Positions 113 through 6,307 are shown, counted from the first letter of the stretch. The stretch is DNA of 6,307 nucleotides from a virus (IMGVR_UViG_3300020026_000012:1-6307); one strand, 5' to 3'. The notes: generated from the sequence alone by a model not told the origin. Program-made: numbers and translations.

Positions 113-850
113 CGCAACATATGGAGCTGCGAATCCTCTCGACAATGATGCATCACAACGTCCGTAAGACCAAGCCTTAGATACATTTTCACAAACAGTT
201 TTCGAGAATCGTTCGGAATTGGAAAACAATAGCAAATGCCAATGCGGGCGGAAACTGGTAGGACCGTATTCTGATACAGCGTAGTAACGTAATTTTTCAT
301 CTGAATAATAACTTCTTAAACGTTTTAAAAATAAATCAAGGTCACGATTACAAACATAAGGAATTCTATTAGGAACGTTATGCTTAATTTTCCCAAGAAT
401 AGACAATAAATCCTTAGGTTTCATAGGATAAGAAAAGCTTACCTTAGGGTCTTTGAATGTACGCTCAACAGTAGAGTTCTTTAACTTAACAGAGGCACTA
501 CGAGGAGCGCTATGAAAACTAAACAAATAAGTATTAGGGTCACCAGCGTCCAACTCATTAATGTTCGGAACACAAGGCACATCAGCAACATCATCCGTAC
601 AAGTTTCAACAATCGAAACCTCCAAAGTAGGAAGAAAGCGAGGAGCATAAGTAAGAGTAACAAAATATACATAACGGAATTGAGAAGAATAAGTAGTGAG
701 TAAATTTGTTTGAATAGCAGAACGACGAAGGACACAAGAAGGACAACAACCACAGGGAACAACAACGGACTCATGCGTATACTTATTGACAACCGTACGA
801 GGGTGCTGACAACGTGTCACTAACTTATTTTGTAATTCCTTAGTAATCAT
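1..850 (-). CDS. VP4: Replication initiation protein (Rep, VP4/A-like HUH endonuclease), N-terminal 283 codons. The ORF runs off the left window edge and continues on the circle into 6195..5351. Full gene = complement(join(5351..6195,1..850)), 564 aa.
   Basis: Hand translation from the ATG at 850..848 gives MITKELQNKLVTRCQHPRTVVNKYTHESVVVPCGCCPSCVLRR..., the Cys cluster typical of microvirus VP4 N-termini. It contains RCR motif I FVTLTY, the HUH motif RPHWHLLLF (H-W-H codons at 244..236) and a two-tyrosine motif YVASY (121..107) with the same spacing as phiX174 A protein YVAKY. There is no stop down to base 1. The frame is continuous with the 303-aa ORF of the right-hand copy (M262 = ATG at 67..65 = 6262..6260). 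The start overlaps the upstream stop as ATGA. It is absent from the ORF track only because it has no stop inside the window. Confidence 0.9.
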   Translation of the reverse strand, partial: MITKELQNKLVTRCQHPRTVVNKYTHESVVVPCGCCPSCVLRRSAIQTNLLTTYSSQFRYVYFVTLTYAPRFLPTLEVSIVETCTDDVADVPCVPNINELDAGDPNTYLFSFHSAPRSASVKLKNSTVERTFKDPKVSFSYPMKPKDLLSILGKIKHNVPNRIPYVCNRDLDLFLKRLRSYYSDEKLRYYAVSEYGPTSFRPHWHLLLFSNSERFSKTVCENVSKAWSYGRCDASLSRGFAAPYVASYVNSFVALPDFYTQMPKVVRPKSFHSIGFTESNLFP

Positions 851-1155
851 TTTCTATTAATAAAATTAAGTTCCATTTGACGAGGCTTGCGACCACGAGC
901 AAAGGAAATGTGAACAAAAGTGCGATACTTTATAAGTTGGTCAAACTTGAAAGGAGATTCTTTAATCACATAGATTAAAGAATCAACCGAAAAATCCAAA
1001 GGCTTTAAATCAATAGCATCTCCAGTCAAATGTTGAGAATTCTCAGAACCATTACATGCCTCATTTTGTTCCTTAGTACGAAAAGCTGAAGTGACAGTAA
1101 AATGAAGGTTTCGACAGAGGAGCCACTCAACAAATTTCATTAATTCAGGGTTCAT
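847..1155 (-). CDS. Peptidase M15-family (M15_3/M15A-like, zinc D-Ala-D-Ala carboxypeptidase/endolysin fold) cell-wall hydrolase, 102 aa
   Basis: The segment TVTSAFRTKEQNEACNGSENSQHLTGDAIDL matches the family signature SGYR-x4-N-x3-GG-x2-NSQH-x2-G-x-A-x-D (H42-x6-D49). A distal FVHIS (H82) sits where the family has FVHVD. The protein has no signal peptide. Its TGA stop overlaps the Rep ATG (ATGA at 850..847). Confidence 0.75.
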   Translation of the reverse strand: MNPELMKFVEWLLCRNLHFTVTSAFRTKEQNEACNGSENSQHLTGDAIDLKPLDFSVDSLIYVIKESPFKFDQLIKYRTFVHISFARGRKPRQMELNFINRK

Positions 1156-1182: not shown

Positions 1183-1266
1183 AAATATCTGAGCAATAGA
1201 CGTAAGAAGACTAACAGCAGCTGCAATAATTGCAGACCAAATTTTAGATTTAGTATCACTTTTCAT
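1177..1266 (-). CDS. Small single-pass membrane peptide, 29 aa (MKSDTKSKIWSAIIAAAVSLLTSIAQIFS). Candidate holin-like or lysis accessory protein.
   Basis: Hand translation from the ATG at 1266..1264 to the TAA at 1179..1177. A charged N-terminus (K2,D4,K6,K8) is followed by about 20 hydrophobic residues. It sits directly upstream of the M15 peptidase and overlaps the upstream ORF stop by 11 nt (ATGAAAAGTGA). It is too short for the ORF track. T-rich strands readily give hydrophobic short ORFs, so coding status is uncertain. Confidence 0.3.
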   Translation of the reverse strand: MKSDTKSKIWSAIIAAAVSLLTSIAQIFS

Positions 1267-1429
1267 GAGAAAATGATTTAAAAGTTGAACATTGAGAAAT
1301 AATAAGAACACAATCAGGGCAGAGATGAGAAGAAACAAAATCAGAAATAGACTCGACGGGGACGAGAATAGTCTCGTTCTGATTAGGATTTACCTTAGAC
1401 TGTACAGAGCACAAATAGCAATTTTCCAT
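1256..1429 (-). CDS. Small cysteine-pair protein, 57 aa, putative zinc-ribbon (MENCYLCSVQSKVNPNQNETILVPVESISDFVSSHLCPDCVLIISQCSTFKSFSHEK). Function unknown.
   Basis: Hand translation from the ATG at 1429..1427 to the TGA at 1258..1256. The pattern is C4-x2-C7-x29-C37-x2-C40. It is the first ORF downstream of the promoter-like motif. It falls below the ORF-track length cutoff. Confidence 0.4.
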   Translation of the reverse strand: MENCYLCSVQSKVNPNQNETILVPVESISDFVSSHLCPDCVLIISQCSTFKSFSHEK

Positions 1430-1471
1430 AACACTTAAAATTTTAATTATACATTGATTTTAAACACAGAA

Positions 1472-1504
1472 CAAAGATATAAATAAAAATTTGAAGAAAG
1501 CAAA
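1472..1504 (-). promoter_or_regulatory. Bacteroidetes-type promoter candidate: -33 TTTG (1504..1501), a 21-nt spacer, then -7 TATCTTTG (1479..1472)
   Basis: The gene-strand sequence reads tgtgtaTTTGctttcttcaaatttttatttaTATCTTTGttctg. TATCTTTG is a perfect match to the Bacteroides -7 consensus TAnnTTTG, and the upstream TTTG lies at the far end of the reported spacing range. It sits in a ~17% GC spacer, about 45 nt upstream of the first ATG (1429). The AT-rich context makes chance matches plausible. Confidence 0.35.
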
Positions 1505-1545
1505 TACACACATATATTATTAACATAAATAAACAAAAGCTATAT

Positions 1546-1832
1546 GGGTGGACGGCTGGTCTGTGAGTTTGCGTTATTCAGACAAGAGGAGACTGAAAGC
1601 GATGAGGTAAATCGCTTTCCCTTCGGGCAAACTCATGTAGACTTCGTCAAATAATATTTTAGGGTTATAGCAGCGACGGCAGAGAGGAGCTCTCCGGGAA
1701 ATTGCTTACGCGTTGCGAACGTTAAGCTTAAAGGATAGCAGTACTATAGCCTTCGGCTCTGATTTCAGTCCTAACGTCCCGAAATTCAGAAGGTGTATAA
1801 CCACGCTACGCGCGGTTGCCAAAAGTTACTCC
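1546..1832. other. Hairpin-dense, GC-enriched non-coding module. It could be a structured ncRNA or an ssDNA structural element such as a complementary-strand origin or priming signal. Strand is undetermined.
   Basis: There is no credible ORF; the longest ATG ORF on the gene strand is 20 aa (1636..1574). Domain 1 is closed by a 9-bp helix, 1564-1572/1627-1635. It encloses 1577-1581/1593-1597, the perfect 9-bp hairpin 1595-1603/1611-1619 (loop GAGGTAA) and C(TTCG)G at 1621-1626. Domain 2 is closed by a 7-bp helix, 1663-1669/1796-1802. It encloses hairpins 1682-1686/1690-1694, 1704-1710/1720-1727, 1735-1738/1744-1747, 1748-1751/1755-1758 and 1758-1766/1781-1790. My hand count gives about 45-47% G+C here, against about 17% in 1441..1545. 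Confidence 0.5.
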
Positions 1833-1867
1833 AAAAAAAAACCCGGCGCGTATCACTACGAACCGGG
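1833..1867 (-). terminator. Rho-independent terminator of the structural gene block
   Basis: The gene strand reads CCCGG-tt-CGTA-GTGA-TACG-cg-CCGGG followed by T9 (1841..1833). That is a 5-bp plus 4-bp stem with a GNRA-type GUGA loop, starting 35 nt after the VP2 stop. On the + strand the hairpin is followed by AGGGAAAAAA, so it works in one direction only. Confidence 0.65.
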
Positions 1868-1902
1868 AGGGAAAAAACGAAAAGAAGCACAGAAAATTAA
1901 TA

Positions 1903-2973
1903 CTAACGATGAGGTATGAAATTACCTATAGTATTACCAATACTAACACCATAACCTATCCTTTTATCAGTATCAAAATACATATGTTTTTTCTTTTCAT
2001 TTCGAGAGCGATACCAATCCTCAATATTCTTACTACGAGCATTATCCTGAGGAAGACCTAATCTAAGCTCTTCATTATGATAAGCAGCAGAAGATTGATT
2101 GGCAGCAATATTAGCAGCAATTTGAGACTCAGCAATAGCAAAACCAACCTCATTAGAAATATTCTGACCACGTGTACGAGCAGCGGCCAAAGCTTCCTCA
2201 GCTATAGCCTTTTTAGCTTCAGCATAAGAAAGATATCCAGAAGACATACGTTGGTAATAGTCCGCGGCCTTAACATTCAAATCGAGCTGCTGTTGTTGGT
2301 CAAGATACTTATTCATAATACCTTTAGCCTCATTATCAAGAAGCATACCAGAACGCTGAGCACGCATAATAAGACCTGTCATTGCCATATTATCAACTTC
2401 TTGTTGTTCCTTGGCATAACCAAGCTGAGCACGAGCCAATCCAGTAGACCTCAAATAATTACGGGTTTCATCAGTAAGTTTTCCCCAATCAATATTGGAA
2501 AGAGTTTCCATTGCCTTAGCATCAGCAAGTTGTCTAGCACCTTGCAATTGAGATTTTTCAGATTGCATCAACTCGTATTGGAAAATGTTACCAATGGAAG
2601 AACTAATACCGGAATAATCAGCCTGAAAAGGTTGCATGACAGCAGAACCAGAAGAAGAAGCAGAAGCACCGGTACCAGCTGATTGAGCAATACCAGATGA
2701 ACCTCCGTTCATCATCAAATAAGGATTCAAACCAGCTTCCTCGAGACGTTGGCGTTGAGCAGAAGCAGTGTTATAAGCATTCTCCTTATTCCACATATTC
2801 TCCTGCCAATTACGCTGCTGTATCGCCATACGTTCGTTAAACTGGTTATTCATCTGATTAATCTTATAATTCATCTGATTGGTCTCCCGGACATTCTGCC
2901 TATTCTGTGAATTCTGAATAGAAGAAGAACCAACACCAAGAAGACCACCAGCGATTGAACTCAAAAGACCCAT
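1903..2973 (-). CDS. VP2: Minor capsid / DNA pilot protein VP2, 356 aa
   Basis: The protein has a Gly/Ser-rich N-terminus, a Q/N-rich coiled region and the conserved block ...NTASAQRQRLEEAGLNPYLMM..., the AGLNP motif typical of gokusho/alpavirus VP2. It sits downstream of the capsid and scaffold genes. Its start overlaps the upstream stop (TAATG at 2975..2971). Confidence 0.85.
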   Translation of the reverse strand: MGLLSSIAGGLLGVGSSSIQNSQNRQNVRETNQMNYKINQMNNQFNERMAIQQRNWQENMWNKENAYNTASAQRQRLEEAGLNPYLMMNGGSSGIAQSAGTGASASSSGSAVMQPFQADYSGISSSIGNIFQYELMQSEKSQLQGARQLADAKAMETLSNIDWGKLTDETRNYLRSTGLARAQLGYAKEQQEVDNMAMTGLIMRAQRSGMLLDNEAKGIMNKYLDQQQQLDLNVKAADYYQRMSSGYLSYAEAKKAIAEEALAAARTRGQNISNEVGFAIAESQIAANIAANQSSAAYHNEELRLGLPQDNARSKNIEDWYRSRNEKKKHMYFDTDKRIGYGVSIGNTIGNFIPHR

Positions 2974-3455
2974 TACTCAGAGGATGCAGGTTCAGCGGAA
3001 GCAGCAACCGCCTTTTCTGTCTCTTGTTTAGCATTTTCAGCATCAATCAATGCTTGAGCTTGAGACTCAAGATGCTCAGCATAAGCAGACAACTCCTTAG
3101 ACCAAGCAATAATTTCAGAAGGAGCCTGAATATGCCGAGAACGTACCGTTGCCAAAAGATCATCATCAGACATCGTATCCATTATTTGTTGAATTTGAGA
3201 AGAAGACTGGTTGCTTTGTCCAAAATTAGAAGCAACAGCAAGACCAGCACGGGAAGCCAAATCCTTAGTATGAAGGATTAACCGAATATCAGAAGTATAA
3301 CGCACCGGGCAAAATTCTTCAGTATCATAAATTTCTACACGAAGTTGCTCGGTAGAATCAAACTGAGGAGCAACAGCGAAAGCGTCAGGCTCAACATTAG
3401 GAATAAGACCGGAACCTTGTTCCAGACATTCCAAAGAATTAAATTTTCCTATCAT
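2973..3455 (-). CDS. Acidic 160-aa protein in the position of the internal scaffolding protein (VP3-like). The function is assigned by position and composition only.
   Basis: It is a clean ORF between VP1 and VP2 and is translationally coupled to VP2. It has an acidic, Ala/Glu/Gln-rich predicted helical C-terminus (ELSAYAEHLESQAQALIDAENAKQETEKAVAASAE). I do not see the gokushovirus VP3 signature, so the name is tentative. Confidence 0.55.
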   Translation of the reverse strand: MIGKFNSLECLEQGSGLIPNVEPDAFAVAPQFDSTEQLRVEIYDTEEFCPVRYTSDIRLILHTKDLASRAGLAVASNFGQSNQSSSQIQQIMDTMSDDDLLATVRSRHIQAPSEIIAWSKELSAYAEHLESQAQALIDAENAKQETEKAVAASAEPASSE

Positions 3456-3469
3456 AATCGAAACAAAAA

Positions 3470-5317
3470 CTAATAAGGCACACCATCACGAGACAAATTA
3501 CGGGCAACGTGGCAACCGATATAAGAATTAATAAGAAGTTGGTCAGTATCCCAAGTAGAATCCGCAGCAACTCCAAATATAGGATCAAGAACGGAAGGAT
3601 TAACCTTAAAGAACTTGTAATTCAAAACAACCTTATTCTGTTTGTTAACATCGCCTTCATTATAACCAAATCCAAACCATCCAGAAAGGAGAGATTCGGT
3701 AACAGGAGAAACCCAAGATTTAAGAGTGGTAGTAAAGGCACCGTTAATAACGTCAAGCTTTGTCTTCCAATTGAAATAACGAGGATTATAACCTGCATTG
3801 AACAGATTAACAATAGAAGCTCTTGGAGAATTAAAAATCTGTGTCATAGGAAGGACTTCCATGCCAATATTATCAAACTCCGGAATAGGGAGGGATTCAG
3901 CATCAGTTACAAGGAGCTGGCCATCCTGACCAGTAATTGTGTAATCAAGCAAAGGAACAGCATGATAAATACACATAATGACACAATGCTCGTTAGTAGT
4001 GTAAGTGAAAGAACCGTTACCAGCACCAACACCTTTACCAGCAATAACAGCAGTATCACTCTCAGCGGCAAGATTATTATTTACAACCTCACTGATATCA
4101 AGATTACGAGAAATTCCACCAATATAAGTACACAGATTGGAAAGAGCTTGAGGCAAGCTTACACCAAAATGTTTACGTATCTGTTCACGGTAATCGCTAT
4201 CTCCAGATTGGCTAATCTCTTTCCAACGTTGAAGAGCTTCAACTTGACGAAGAGCAAGAACTGTAAACTGAGACTTCAAAGAAGACAAATCAACACGAAG
4301 AGTAGAAGAAACAGGTATTGAATTAGTCGAAGAAGCATTTAAAGCAAAGAGAGGAACAGGAGAAGCATTAGAAGTAACAGCAGAAGCTATACCTAACTTA
4401 CTATTAGAGTTCCCAAGTCCTAAAACAACATCAGGCTTACCGGAATTGTCAATATCAAGAACAGCAACATCACCAAATTGAGAGTTCGGAAGAACACCCA
4501 TCAACATGTCTTTGTTCCAGTTACAATATTTGAGGTCAAACATTGTGTCAGACTTCCAATAAGCAGAATCAACAGAAGGCATAGAAGAAACCAAGTAAGG
4601 ATCAACACCTGAAAAATAGTCCACATTATAGGAAGAAGGATTTGCATTTTCCCATTGAGACCAACGGAAAAAATCTTGATAAATCTTCTGATAAGCAAGA
4701 AGAGGGAAAACATTCACAACATTATTCTGAATATAGGCCTGAGTATAAGGAGAAGAAGCTTCATACTTTAAAGTTGTAGACCACCAACGATTGCCAGAAG
4801 AAGGAGTATTAAGTATAACATTTCCATAACCAAGATAACTTAAAAGCTTATAGCCTAAATCACCACGATTAAAACCAAACATATTATTTAAAGAAGAAGA
4901 ATTGCCAGGATTGACACTATTTCCATTAAGCCTACTCAAAGCTTGATAAAAAAAGTTGAGAGGTAAAGAAGGTAAATAAGCACCAAGAGACAAATTCTGA
5001 GTAAAAGACAAAGCCTGAATCTGATTGATATCCTGCATTTGAGTTAACACAGTAGGAGCAGACTTCCAGAGAAGACGCAAGGGTACAGCATAAAAATCAA
5101 AGTACTCACGCAACCGGGTATAAGCAGAAGTTTCAACAGGCTGAGTACGGGTAAAATACTCAACGTCAAACTTATACTTATCTCCGGGCATAGAAATATC
5201 CCAGTACACAGGGAGAAGCTCTCCAGCTTTCGCAGTGAAAGCATTTTTACGACCAATATCAAAACCAGAACGGTGAGGCCTATTTTGAAGATTGGACATT
5301 CCAGTATAAGAAGCCAT
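3470..5317 (-). CDS. VP1: Major capsid protein VP1 (Microviridae F-protein family), 615 aa
   Basis: The N-terminal block HRSGFDIGRKNAFTAKAGELLPVYWDISMPGDKYKFDVEYFTRTQPVETSAYTRLREYFDFYAVPLRLLW and the later LRQVEALQRWKE...IRKHFGV...YIGG are hallmark conserved segments of microvirus major capsid proteins. It is the longest ORF in the window. Confidence 0.95.
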   Translation of the reverse strand: MASYTGMSNLQNRPHRSGFDIGRKNAFTAKAGELLPVYWDISMPGDKYKFDVEYFTRTQPVETSAYTRLREYFDFYAVPLRLLWKSAPTVLTQMQDINQIQALSFTQNLSLGAYLPSLPLNFFYQALSRLNGNSVNPGNSSSLNNMFGFNRGDLGYKLLSYLGYGNVILNTPSSGNRWWSTTLKYEASSPYTQAYIQNNVVNVFPLLAYQKIYQDFFRWSQWENANPSSYNVDYFSGVDPYLVSSMPSVDSAYWKSDTMFDLKYCNWNKDMLMGVLPNSQFGDVAVLDIDNSGKPDVVLGLGNSNSKLGIASAVTSNASPVPLFALNASSTNSIPVSSTLRVDLSSLKSQFTVLALRQVEALQRWKEISQSGDSDYREQIRKHFGVSLPQALSNLCTYIGGISRNLDISEVVNNNLAAESDTAVIAGKGVGAGNGSFTYTTNEHCVIMCIYHAVPLLDYTITGQDGQLLVTDAESLPIPEFDNIGMEVLPMTQIFNSPRASIVNLFNAGYNPRYFNWKTKLDVINGAFTTTLKSWVSPVTESLLSGWFGFGYNEGDVNKQNKVVLNYKFFKVNPSVLDPIFGVAADSTWDTDQLLINSYIGCHVARNLSRDGVPY

Positions 5318-5350: not shown

Positions 5351-6307
5351 TTATTCTTGTGAAAGAATACCTAACGAATCATTAACCTCTTTGTGTTTAA
5401 CCTTATCCCGACATTTCTTCAATGCCGCAGCGATCAAACGACGAACAAGAGGTAATTCATTATAAGGAACTTCTTCATCAAGAACAGATTTATCATAACG
5501 GAAAGAATAGTTACGAAGTTCAAAATCAACCAAGTCTTTATCATTGGCATCCTCCAAAGTCTGATAAAAATCAACAAGACGATTATACTCGTAACGATTC
5601 CAAAAATCAACTATTTTAACGGAAAGAATATGCAAAAAGTCTATTTGTCCAGGGAATGTTCCTCCGAAAAAGCAGCAGGGAAAGAAGTATCTCGGGTCTC
5701 CGTCTGATGAATAGACTCGAATAAATTTCTTAATTCCAAGGAAAAAGCGGTAGACACGGGAGATACGATGAACAGGTTCCAAATCAACACCATCGTACAA
5801 ACGACATTCAGACAAAATAAGAATATCACTATGCGGTAGAGCCGCTTTAGGTGAAAGAATATTTCTTTCATCATTTCTTTTTTCATAATTATCGACATAA
5901 TCTAAATATTGTCTACAAAAAGATAAAAGGGATTGTTTAGAATCAGCACTAAAAGGACTACAATCTAAATCAGCGCATCCGCCACGAACGACTCTCCCGG
6001 GCGCTGTGAACGCAGCAGATAATAACTGGTAAACACGCGATGGAAATTTACGAATAGGCTCTGAAAATCTCGGGAATAATCGAAGGAGATACGGCCAAGA
6101 AGGTTTAATTGTGAAAAAATATCCATTGCGCTCAACGCGGACTCCATTAAGGCACTCATCGGCAACCTTATCAACTTCGGCAATTTGTACCTTTCGAGGA
6201 AAGAGATTTGATTCTGTAAATCCAATGGAATGGAAGGATTTAGGTCGCACCACTTTTGGCATTTGAGTATAAAAGTCGGGTAAAGCGACAAAACTATTAA
6301 CATACGA
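5351..6307 (-). CDS. VP4: Rep/VP4, C-terminal 318 codons plus stop. The ORF is open to the right window edge, and 6196..6307 duplicates 1..112.
   Basis: The reading frame is open from 6307 down to the TAA at 5353..5351. The 303-aa ORF in the track (ATG at 6262) is only the stretch from an internal Met (M262) of the 564-aa Rep. I recognise no motifs in this half. Confidence 0.85.
   Translation of the reverse strand, partial: SYVNSFVALPDFYTQMPKVVRPKSFHSIGFTESNLFPRKVQIAEVDKVADECLNGVRVERNGYFFTIKPSWPYLLRLFPRFSEPIRKFPSRVYQLLSAAFTAPGRVVRGGCADLDCSPFSADSKQSLLSFCRQYLDYVDNYEKRNDERNILSPKAALPHSDILILSECRLYDGVDLEPVHRISRVYRFFLGIKKFIRVYSSDGDPRYFFPCCFFGGTFPGQIDFLHILSVKIVDFWNRYEYNRLVDFYQTLEDANDKDLVDFELRNYSFRYDKSVLDEEVPYNELPLVRRLIAAALKKCRDKVKHKEVNDSLGILSQE
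6196..6307. repeat. Terminal redundancy, right copy (identical to 1..112)
   Basis: Same comparison as for the left copy. The repeat lies inside the Rep coding sequence, so it comes from linearising a circle and is not a biological repeat. Confidence 0.97.

Follow-up and report, generated by a model that had tools for sequence, protein, structure and literature searches.

What is the function of the hairpin module that occupies the only large non-coding gap of a microvirus genome? The window discussed here is the whole 6,307-nucleotide stretch of viral DNA IMGVR_UViG_3300020026_000012:1-6307. It comprises a complete circular microvirus genome—a 6195-nt unit with a 112-nt terminal overlap—in which every gene lies on the minus strand. 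Conversion of single-stranded DNA (ssDNA) to double-stranded DNA uses only host enzymes and occurs at a single-strand initiation (ssi) or single-strand origin (sso) signal (PMC5714925). Every microvirus must convert its ssDNA at such a hairpin signal, and in the window the gap at 1430-1902 is the only sizeable non-coding stretch. A recent microvirus study sought intergenic hairpins of this kind, yielding candidates only (PMC9865509). Judged from its sequence, the module at 1546-1836 is likely (probability about 0.7) to be a single-strand origin for complementary-strand synthesis, acting as DNA and not as RNA. Two functions had been put forward in the original prediction, which was made from this DNA alone. 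The first, a complementary-strand origin, is favoured by the class of the hairpin loops, by orientation on the T-rich strand and by position, whereas the second, an independently expressed structured non-coding RNA (ncRNA), is left without positive support.

The observations that bear on this question are direct ones: the conservation of the module, its strand, its hairpins, their loop class, its orientation relative to nucleotide skew, and the lack of any coding or RNA-family signal. Homologues were collected by blastn against GenBank phages, by pattern scans of IMG/VR and metagenome contigs, and with nhmmer profiles. The module is present in more than 120 microvirus contigs, and the blastn search against GenBank phages places it in Dulem, bajarodmic and marmot microviruses. 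In all close relatives it lies 3' of the pilot gene in the gene sense, and each phage genome carries a single copy at one syntenic site. In GTDB, 185,579 species genomes of bacteria and archaea gave 0 matches to either of two patterns. In the window the module forms two domains on the minus strand, A (~1661-1832) and B (~1549-1652), with the following parts.

1546..1836, minus strand (the gene strand, T-rich): whole hairpin module, domains A and B, with 80-94% identity among relatives.
1661..1832, minus strand: domain A, hairpins H0-H5 and conserved single-stranded boxes (nhmmer profile match 1832-1662).
1799..1817, minus strand: H1, an 8-bp hairpin, AACCGCGC-GTA-GCGTGGTT, with a GCGNAGC mini-hairpin core.
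1759..1789, minus strand: H2, an 11-pair bipartite hairpin with the tip c(GTTA)g / c(GTA)g or GAC-YCY-GTC.
1748..1758, minus strand: H3, the mini-hairpin AGCC-GAA-GGCT, with compensatory changes in three pairs.
1708..1722, minus strand: H4, the hairpin ACGT-TCGCAAC-GCGT, with 96.5% of cells paired.
1681..1695, minus strand: H5, the variable hairpin GGAGAG-CTC-CTCTCT, with 73.9% of cells paired and 4 pairs that change on both sides.
1640..1648, minus strand: H6, the mini-hairpin GAC-GAA-GTC, between the two domains.
1564..1635, minus strand: domain B core, a three-way junction in which P2 and P3 covary and P1 is invariant.
1564-1572/1627-1635, minus strand: P1 of domain B.
1619-1627, minus strand: P2 of domain B, CCC-GAA-GGG.
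1595-1619, minus strand: P3 of domain B.
1573-1594, minus strand: J3/1 of domain B, single-stranded, AGTCTCCTCTTGTCTGAATAAC.
1546..1563, minus strand: 3' tail, CAGACCAGCCGTCCACCC, its first bases within the invariant GCAAACTCACAGAC, with a weak likeness to the AGACCA end of the phiX174 origin.

Intrastrand pairing in the module has been kept in evolution. For the proposed local-hairpin structure, pairs were counted in 101 sequences of domain A and 98 of domain B, all distinct. In domain A, 94.6% of cells are paired, whereas sliding the partners leaves 33-48%; 15 pairs change on both sides, compared to 1-6 in the slid controls, and none of 500 shuffles attains any of the five observed measures. 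The corresponding figures for domain B are 98.5% and 27-41%, with 5 pairs changing on both sides. For both domains, 0/500 shuffles match the observed paired-cell percentage or covariation score. Taken over A and B, 20 pairs change on both sides, and the eight local hairpins that had been predicted do fit the homologues, with compensatory changes in seven of them.

The hairpins differ in how they vary. H1 is the most widely conserved piece and the sole part still alignable in Dulem virus 262; it carries a near-invariant G.T wobble and a CG-to-UA compensatory change. In H2, UA has become CG in 35 sequences and CG has become GC in 45. The stem of H6 occurs as GGC/GCC, GAC/GTC, GGT/ACC and GAT/ATC, with a GAA loop in all. 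H4 varies only from C-G to T.G, on one side; it is preceded immediately 5' by a near-invariant CTT(G/A)AYG and contains the invariant GCAACGCGTA. This invariant stretch (1708-1729, minus strand) includes the palindromes TTGCAA and ACGCGT and is conserved beyond what a 4-bp stem needs, so that the palindromes may be a site of protein binding or of loop-loop contact. The G of the domain A CTTG is A in the window and in three relatives (L022, L038 and L120; numbers of this form are our handles for loci). About a quarter of the homologues have an unpaired pyrimidine tract in place of H5, and in one contig (L078:1640-1780) four to five tandem copies of the H5 unit (GGAGAGCTGCTCTTTTCCGCC) separate domains A and B. 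Some relatives also carry an optional domain C of ~130 nt between A and B (L003, L018, L061, L101 and L103; also L030:3950-4100), which has the sequence GTCGCTTGCGAC... and ACGATTC-AAGTCCGNAGGAAGAA-GAATCGT. Its stems covary and it includes a mini-hairpin of the same loop type, TCC-G(A/T/G)A-GGA; shortened forms are found in L020, L110, L104 and L130.

The structure belongs to the minus strand. Folded as RNA and compared to dinucleotide shuffles, this strand has z = -3.33, equalled by no shuffle, while the plus strand has z = -0.42. C-G and T.G interchange at many pairs, and two G.T pairs are near-invariant; since G.T pairs would become A.C mismatches on the other strand, these also place the structure on the minus strand. 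The original prediction had drawn it on the plus strand, which the fold scores, the wobbles and the loop types all contradict, and the shuffle comparison that it had proposed comes out, for the RNA fold, in favour of the opposite strand. Its covariation check, in contrast, bears out a conserved structure. The 9-bp helix 1564-1572/1627-1635, the stem 1595-1603/1611-1619 and the CTTCGG at 1621-1626 are all present in the sequence, but the supposed C(UUCG)G loop is a c(GAA)g triloop read on the complementary strand, a UUCG loop being impossible in GACGAAGTC. Likewise, on the gene strand the loops that had seemed purine-rich correspond to pyrimidine-rich single strands and to GNA loops. One of the two closing helices had been placed correctly: that of domain B (P1) fits the homologues and is invariant over its 9 bp, so covariation neither supports nor contradicts it. 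The other, 1663-1669/1796-1802, is specific to the window; its middle pair occurs in 1/101 homologues, without covariation. Further long-range pairings found no support either, on inspection of the alignment for a GGCA/TGCC pairing and a 5'-3' closing helix, and through the lack of covariation for GGC/GCC closing pairs.

The loops provide the strongest intrinsic sign, at the level of sequence, that selection on this fold may act on DNA. Five hairpins of the module end in C-G-closed GNA triloops or GNNA tetraloops, the latter mostly GTTA, GTCA or GCCA in homologues. When the motif is defined strictly, as a stem of at least 3 bp with C-G closure and a GNA or GNNA loop, the gene strand of the 6195-nt genome contains 4 examples (CGCGTAGCG, GCCGAAGGC, GACGAAGTC and CCCGAAGGG), all inside the 291-nt module; shuffles of the element contain a mean of 0.11 and 0/5000 attain 4. 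The loop of H1 is c(GNA)g in 99/101 sequences (GTA 68, GAA 27, GCA 4). In H3 the homologues have GTTA (43), GTCA (16), GCCA (7), GTA (14) and GAA (13), and only 6 have GNRA, so that 66/72 tetraloops are GTTA, GTCA or GCCA and not of the RNA type. Triloops and tetraloops interchange freely within the GNA/GNNA class. The sequences GCGNAGC and GCGNNAGC are extraordinarily stable DNA mini-hairpins of which the RNA versions are far weaker, as described in a 2026 review from their discoverers, including Hirao; G4 (GCGAAAGC), St-1 and alpha3 (both GCGTTAGC) have such mini-hairpins at their complementary-strand origins, the ssiA signal of RSF1010 contains the mini-hairpin CCGAAGG, and single-strand-binding protein binds DNA mini-hairpins poorly (PMC13037366). 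Because the loops belong to this class, with GNYA rather than GNRA tetraloops, the fold appears to be selected at the DNA level. Loops of the GNA/GNNA type closed by C-G suggest a simple sequence test for DNA-level as opposed to RNA-level structure.

Single-strand origins are by definition orientation-specific (PMC4595007). In the window T occupies 71% of the four-fold degenerate sites on the gene strand, with 59% in Dulem 262 and 52% in mar62, and in these genomes the module is in the sense orientation. A second clade (clade II) also has domain A: mar45 (L006), L030/L095, L109/L122 and L117. Here the gene order is capsid, scaffold, pilot, Rep, gap, small open reading frame (ORF) and M15 peptidase, and domain A occurs alone and antisense to all genes; that of L109 scores 173 bits against the profile of clade I, to which the window belongs. 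The four-fold sites of clade II (L006, L030, L095, L109) are A in 54-61% and T in 6-12%, the minor bases being mirrored too. The strand that carries the element is thus the T-rich strand in 124/124 informative loci of 126, the remaining two being the short chimeric contig L105 and one contig without ORFs. C-to-T pressure on the single strand gives ssDNA phages an excess of NNT codons, and because of this signature (PMC3278643) the T-rich strand is presumably the packaged one. The simplest reading is that the module is always found on the packaged strand, which a DNA-level origin requires, and that in clade II this strand is antisense to the genes. The orientation evidence is supportive of this reading, not proof of it.

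The sharing of domain A is not matched by the proteins. The clade II capsid and pilot proteins give no tblastn match to those of the window, and the Reps of clade II and the window have 21-29% identity, in short stretches only (about 50-200 aa). Domain A is common to three clades whose Reps align at 21-34% identity over ~50-200 aa, and the variant 'A(1-103)+C' is common to clade I (L022, L038, L120) and clade II (L030); domain B is not shared in this way. That domain A is shared across unrelated proteins fits recognition by the host.

The module would provide an internal marker of the packaged strand, and, combined with the synonymous-site skew, it leads to the prediction that in one large microvirus lineage the antisense strand is packaged. 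The lineage concerned comprises mar45, L030/L095 and L109 with related Sigmofec, tortoise and human microviruses. Here a portable origin cassette would mark the packaged strand, and an inversion of the origin region would have flipped the A-rich lineage to packaging the strand complementary to its mRNAs, a proposal to which we give slightly less than even odds. The microvirus family is described as positive-sense. If the proposal is true, there are negative-sense ssDNA phages within this family, and the orientation of their genomes, their annotation and the reading of strand-specific virome libraries would all change. Literature searches for negative-sense or A-rich microviruses produced nothing relevant, and counts of polarised substitutions, made for the direction of mutation, were saturated and returned mirrored composition only. 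The capsid relatives of clade II (L132-L135) have A-rich four-fold sites (0.72, 0.62, 0.76 and 0.39); the lowest value, that of Dulem virus 222 (L135), is a weaker skew than in the rest of the lineage, where A is 0.54-0.76 and T about 0.06-0.12. The intergenic gaps of Sigmofec virus UA08Rod_4510 (L132:4740-4840, 5355-5390) and Dulem virus 222 (L135:3751-3910) contain clustered c(GNA)g mini-hairpins, which are antisense to the genes and on the T-rich strand. In the L132 gap, CACCTTGATAT is a 10/11 match to the start of the phiX174 origin, and on the same strand an ATG follows AAGGAGG, which may denote an antisense gene.

One clade II contig departs from its relatives. L122:2000-5916 is 99.9% identical to L109 over 2.8 kb, but its Rep is shortened (282 aa), and upstream of this Rep a Fic/DOC protein and two helix-turn-helix proteins replace the pilot gene. 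Possible origins of L122 are a prophage junction, recombination that brought in cargo, and chimeric assembly of the contig. The idea that domain A serves as a phage attachment site (attP) at such a junction was discarded, the break relative to L109 being in the 5' region of Rep, ~850 nt away.

The surroundings of the module in the window are as follows.

3470-5317, minus strand: major capsid protein (Phage_F match).
2973-3455, minus strand: scaffold protein.
1903-2973, minus strand: pilot protein.
1833..1867, minus strand: upstream flank, an 11-pair hairpin, CCCGGTTCGTA-GTGA-TACGCGCCGGG, then T9.
1472..1479, minus strand: downstream flank, TATCTTTG, a TAnnTTTG match that precedes the next gene block.
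1256-1429, minus strand: 57-aa ORF, the start of the next gene block, with its ATG at 1429.
847-1155, minus strand: M15 peptidase.
Across the window ends, minus strand: Rep, 564-aa, of the clade I type.

The original description of this region holds: 1430..1902 is the sole large non-coding stretch of the genome, G+C content falls from 48.1% at 1546-1832 to 17.2% at 1430-1545, and there is no credible ORF on either strand, each of the six frames having at least 3 stops. The module also lies, as had been proposed, between a likely terminator on its 5' side and the next promoter on its 3' side. The upstream hairpin with its T9 looks like an intrinsic terminator of the structural-gene transcript, and it is kept with compensatory changes in relatives, e.g. 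L039 and L093; in bajarodmic virus 410 the terminator hairpin is ~190 nt further upstream, apart from the module. Downstream, TAnnTTTG occurs within 260 nt of domain B in 113/118 loci, in a spacer that is 17% G+C in the window. We take this motif to be the Bacteroidota-type -7 promoter element; its conservation ahead of the block of small ORF, peptidase and Rep points to a Bacteroidota host. No conserved promoter of the module's own was seen (a TAACTTYY differs from TAnnTTTG in most sequences), and no terminator follows 3' of the module. A scan for sigma-70 promoters and terminators was set aside, being uninformative for a probable Bacteroidota host and having overlooked the mismatched upstream hairpin.

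A mechanism can be proposed on this basis. The packaged circular strand, once injected or when displaced in replication, would fold at 1546-1836 into a very stable cluster of hairpins, which would probably remain free of single-strand-binding protein. The hairpins would be recognised by a priming enzyme of the host, be it primase, the primosome or RNA polymerase, and this enzyme would make an RNA primer, from which the complementary strand would be synthesised. Domain A and the optional domain C would be priming modules that depend on the host and are exchanged by recombination between unrelated microviruses. Domain B may, in addition, contain the site of the viral-strand origin at which Rep binds and nicks, because it accompanies one Rep type only and has highly conserved single-stranded sequence.

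Several points weigh against a DNA-level priming signal. Folded with DNA parameters the two strands are close and their scores moderate (z = -2.47 for the minus strand, z = -1.86 for the plus strand), and near-invariant G.T wobbles with frequent C-G/T.G alternation are at least equally typical of RNA. In this family the packaged strand has the sense of the mRNA, so a read-through RNA would fold alike. The unpaired boxes (GCAACGCGTA, CTTGTCT and GCAAACTCACAGAC) are very strongly conserved, which hairpin stability alone is insufficient to explain. The orientation test amounts to one inversion event (clade II) and one concordant clade (Dulem 262). Mini-hairpin clusters are absent from the T-rich strand in L133 and L134, so that generalisation to the wider A-rich lineage is not yet secure. 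Finally, we infer the priming function, the enzyme and the identity of the packaged strand from sequence.

Among the other explanations, the one with most in its favour, albeit doubtful, is that the viral-strand (double-strand) origin resides in domain B or is formed by the whole module; Rep would bind there and nick the packaged strand, perhaps within CTCTTG/TCTTATATAC. The hairpins would then serve Rep recognition or extrusion and not host priming, although for domain A this is compatible with an origin of complementary-strand synthesis. All genomes with domain B encode the 564-aa clade I Rep, whereas A and C pass from clade to clade; domain B also has long invariant unpaired stretches. The orientation evidence is equally in keeping with this reading, since a nick site, too, needs to be on the packaged strand. 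The 3' half of domain B, with its unpaired CTTG, AT-rich run and AGACCA, loosely parallels the 30-nt phiX174 origin, CAACTTGATATTAATAACACTATAGACCAC (the 30-mer was verified in gene A of phiX174 and of G4); the resemblance is marginal, the best local alignment having a score of 9 that 52/2000 shuffles equal. The gaps of Dulem 262 and Dulem 222 contain, on the T-rich strand, a CTTGT(N)CTTAT-like motif, and the CACCTTGATAT of the Sigmofec virus gap is equalled by 3/2000 shuffles. However, these likenesses to phiX174 are short, were chosen post hoc and lie in T-rich sequence, and the domain A CTTG has its A for G in the window, L022, L038 and L120. Moreover, the viral-strand site of phiX174 is inside its Rep gene, gene A, and needs no hairpin cluster.

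The remaining explanations take the module to act as RNA or to be mobile. As a new class of structured ncRNA, made from the gene strand by read-through of the upstream hairpin or, in clade II, from a promoter of its own, it would act on gene expression of the host or the phage, e.g. via CU-rich single strands. The RNA fold of the gene strand that beats its shuffles, the covariation of the helices with conserved G.U pairs, and pyrimidine-rich unpaired segments (TCTCCTCTTGTCT; loop TTTACCTCA) that could pair with purine-rich targets are all in keeping with this, and a free-standing gene could lie in reverse orientation, as domain A does in clade II. Nevertheless an ncRNA is improbable. Covariance models of Rfam 15 give no match in the gap 1430-1902 even at E <= 10, and ARAGORN finds no tRNA or tmRNA there, in agreement with the lack of known signatures reported originally; no conserved promoter lies ahead, the terminator-like hairpin and T9 abut the 5' end, and no terminator follows at the 3' end. 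In addition, most tetraloops are GNYA, triloops and tetraloops exchange as in DNA mini-hairpins (PMC13037366), and an RNA gene would have no reason to agree in orientation with the T-rich strand. Still less probable is an element of the 3' untranslated region or transcription boundary, be it an extended terminator, an insulator or an exonuclease block that stabilises the mRNA of the structural genes. The clade I module does directly follow the last structural gene and the terminator-like hairpin, but domain A of clade II is antisense to its flanking genes and so outside their mRNA, the terminator hairpin of bajarodmic virus 410 stands ~190 nt from the module, and ~290 nt with sequence-invariant unpaired boxes far exceeds what a terminator needs. 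The least probable explanation of all, with hardly any weight, is a selfish miniature mobile element, e.g. one of the IS200/IS605 type with hairpin ends, transposing through ssDNA and spread into microvirus genomes. Such an element might account for a module common to unrelated clades in both orientations relative to the genes, for modular insertions (domain C) and for local tandem amplification. It is at odds with one copy per genome at a fixed intergenic position, with the lack of multi-copy families, with the absence of any match in the GTDB genomes and with a non-random orientation that follows the T-rich strand.

Contigs with more than one copy do occur (L076, L091, L111); in these, whole genome segments prove to be chimeric or to be duplicated in tandem or inverted form. 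L076:2052-7739 contains a 2.84-kb tandem duplication of a genome segment, L111:901-1831 an inverted duplication of the module, and in L105 the peptidase gene is inverted; the rearrangements in these three are probably artefacts of assembly or amplification, and they were left out of the orientation statistics. Eight unrelated phage contigs matched a 21-nt domain B pattern or a domain C pattern, and these were treated as chance matches (L055, L057, L059, L063, L065, L137, L138, L140). Five with the domain B pattern were dismissed for want of a profile match and three with the domain C pattern for want of a domain A or B match, the match in L137 and L140 being inside an ORF. Annotation also touches the module in two relatives. 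In Dulem virus 257 (L002:3151-3354) a GenBank 'hypothetical protein' coding sequence lies on the module and is probably spurious; in mar45 (L006:1271-1358) the annotated 3' end of Rep enters the antisense domain A, either because the two truly overlap or because the ORF was extended too far.

Experimental knowledge of complementary-strand origins is limited to E. coli microviruses, e.g. phiX174 and G4. Gut and environmental microviruses dominate metagenomes, and there the origin signal is essentially uncharacterised, with candidate hairpins only (PMC9865509). The module described here is a defined candidate origin with clear modules, supported by covariation and widely conserved.

Among known systems, the primosome assembly site of phiX174 (the n'/PriA hairpin) and the ssiA of RSF1010 are, as proposed for the module, hairpin signals on ssDNA at which complementary-strand priming starts. 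The ssiA motif CCGAAGG (PMC13037366) occurs twice in the window, in GCCGAAGGC and CCCGAAGGG. Signals of this PriA/ssi kind are, however, single hairpins of 40-55 nt, used by PriA or a plasmid primase, whereas the module has at least 8 hairpins and conserved unpaired boxes.

In function and anatomy together, the module appears closest to the primase-dependent origins of G4, St-1 and alpha3 and to plasmid sso cassettes. Like the complementary-strand origins of G4, St-1, alpha3 and phiK, it would be an intergenic cluster of hairpins on the packaged strand of a microvirus. G4 (GCGAAAGC), St-1 and alpha3 (GCGTTAGC) share with it C-G-closed GNNA/GNA mini-hairpins (PMC13037366), the counterparts in the module being H3, which is GCCGTTAGGC in most relatives, and H1, with its GCGTAGC. 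Compared to G4-type origins, the module is ~2x longer, has two or three exchangeable domains and probably belongs to phages of Bacteroidota hosts. In G4-type origins the primer starts at a CTG 3' of hairpin I; the CTG 3' of H1 belongs to the H2 stem and covaries. No homology to the G4, St-1 or alpha3 origins was detected, blastn against phage records having matched only gut microviruses of the module's own lineage; nor was any seen to plasmid sso cassettes.

Plasmid sso cassettes are exchanged between replicons with unrelated Reps, and two can adjoin, as do ssoA and ssoU of pMV158. They are elements of Firmicutes plasmids used by RNA polymerase via RSB and CS-6 motifs, whereas the module is a phage element for which such motifs are not established. 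The plasmid ssoA, ssoT, ssoU and ssoW and the sso of ICEBs1 are, like the module, non-coding, 150-300 nt long, strongly folded and orientation-specific; they depend on host enzymes only (PMC4595007, PMC5714925), and the same dependence is proposed for the module.

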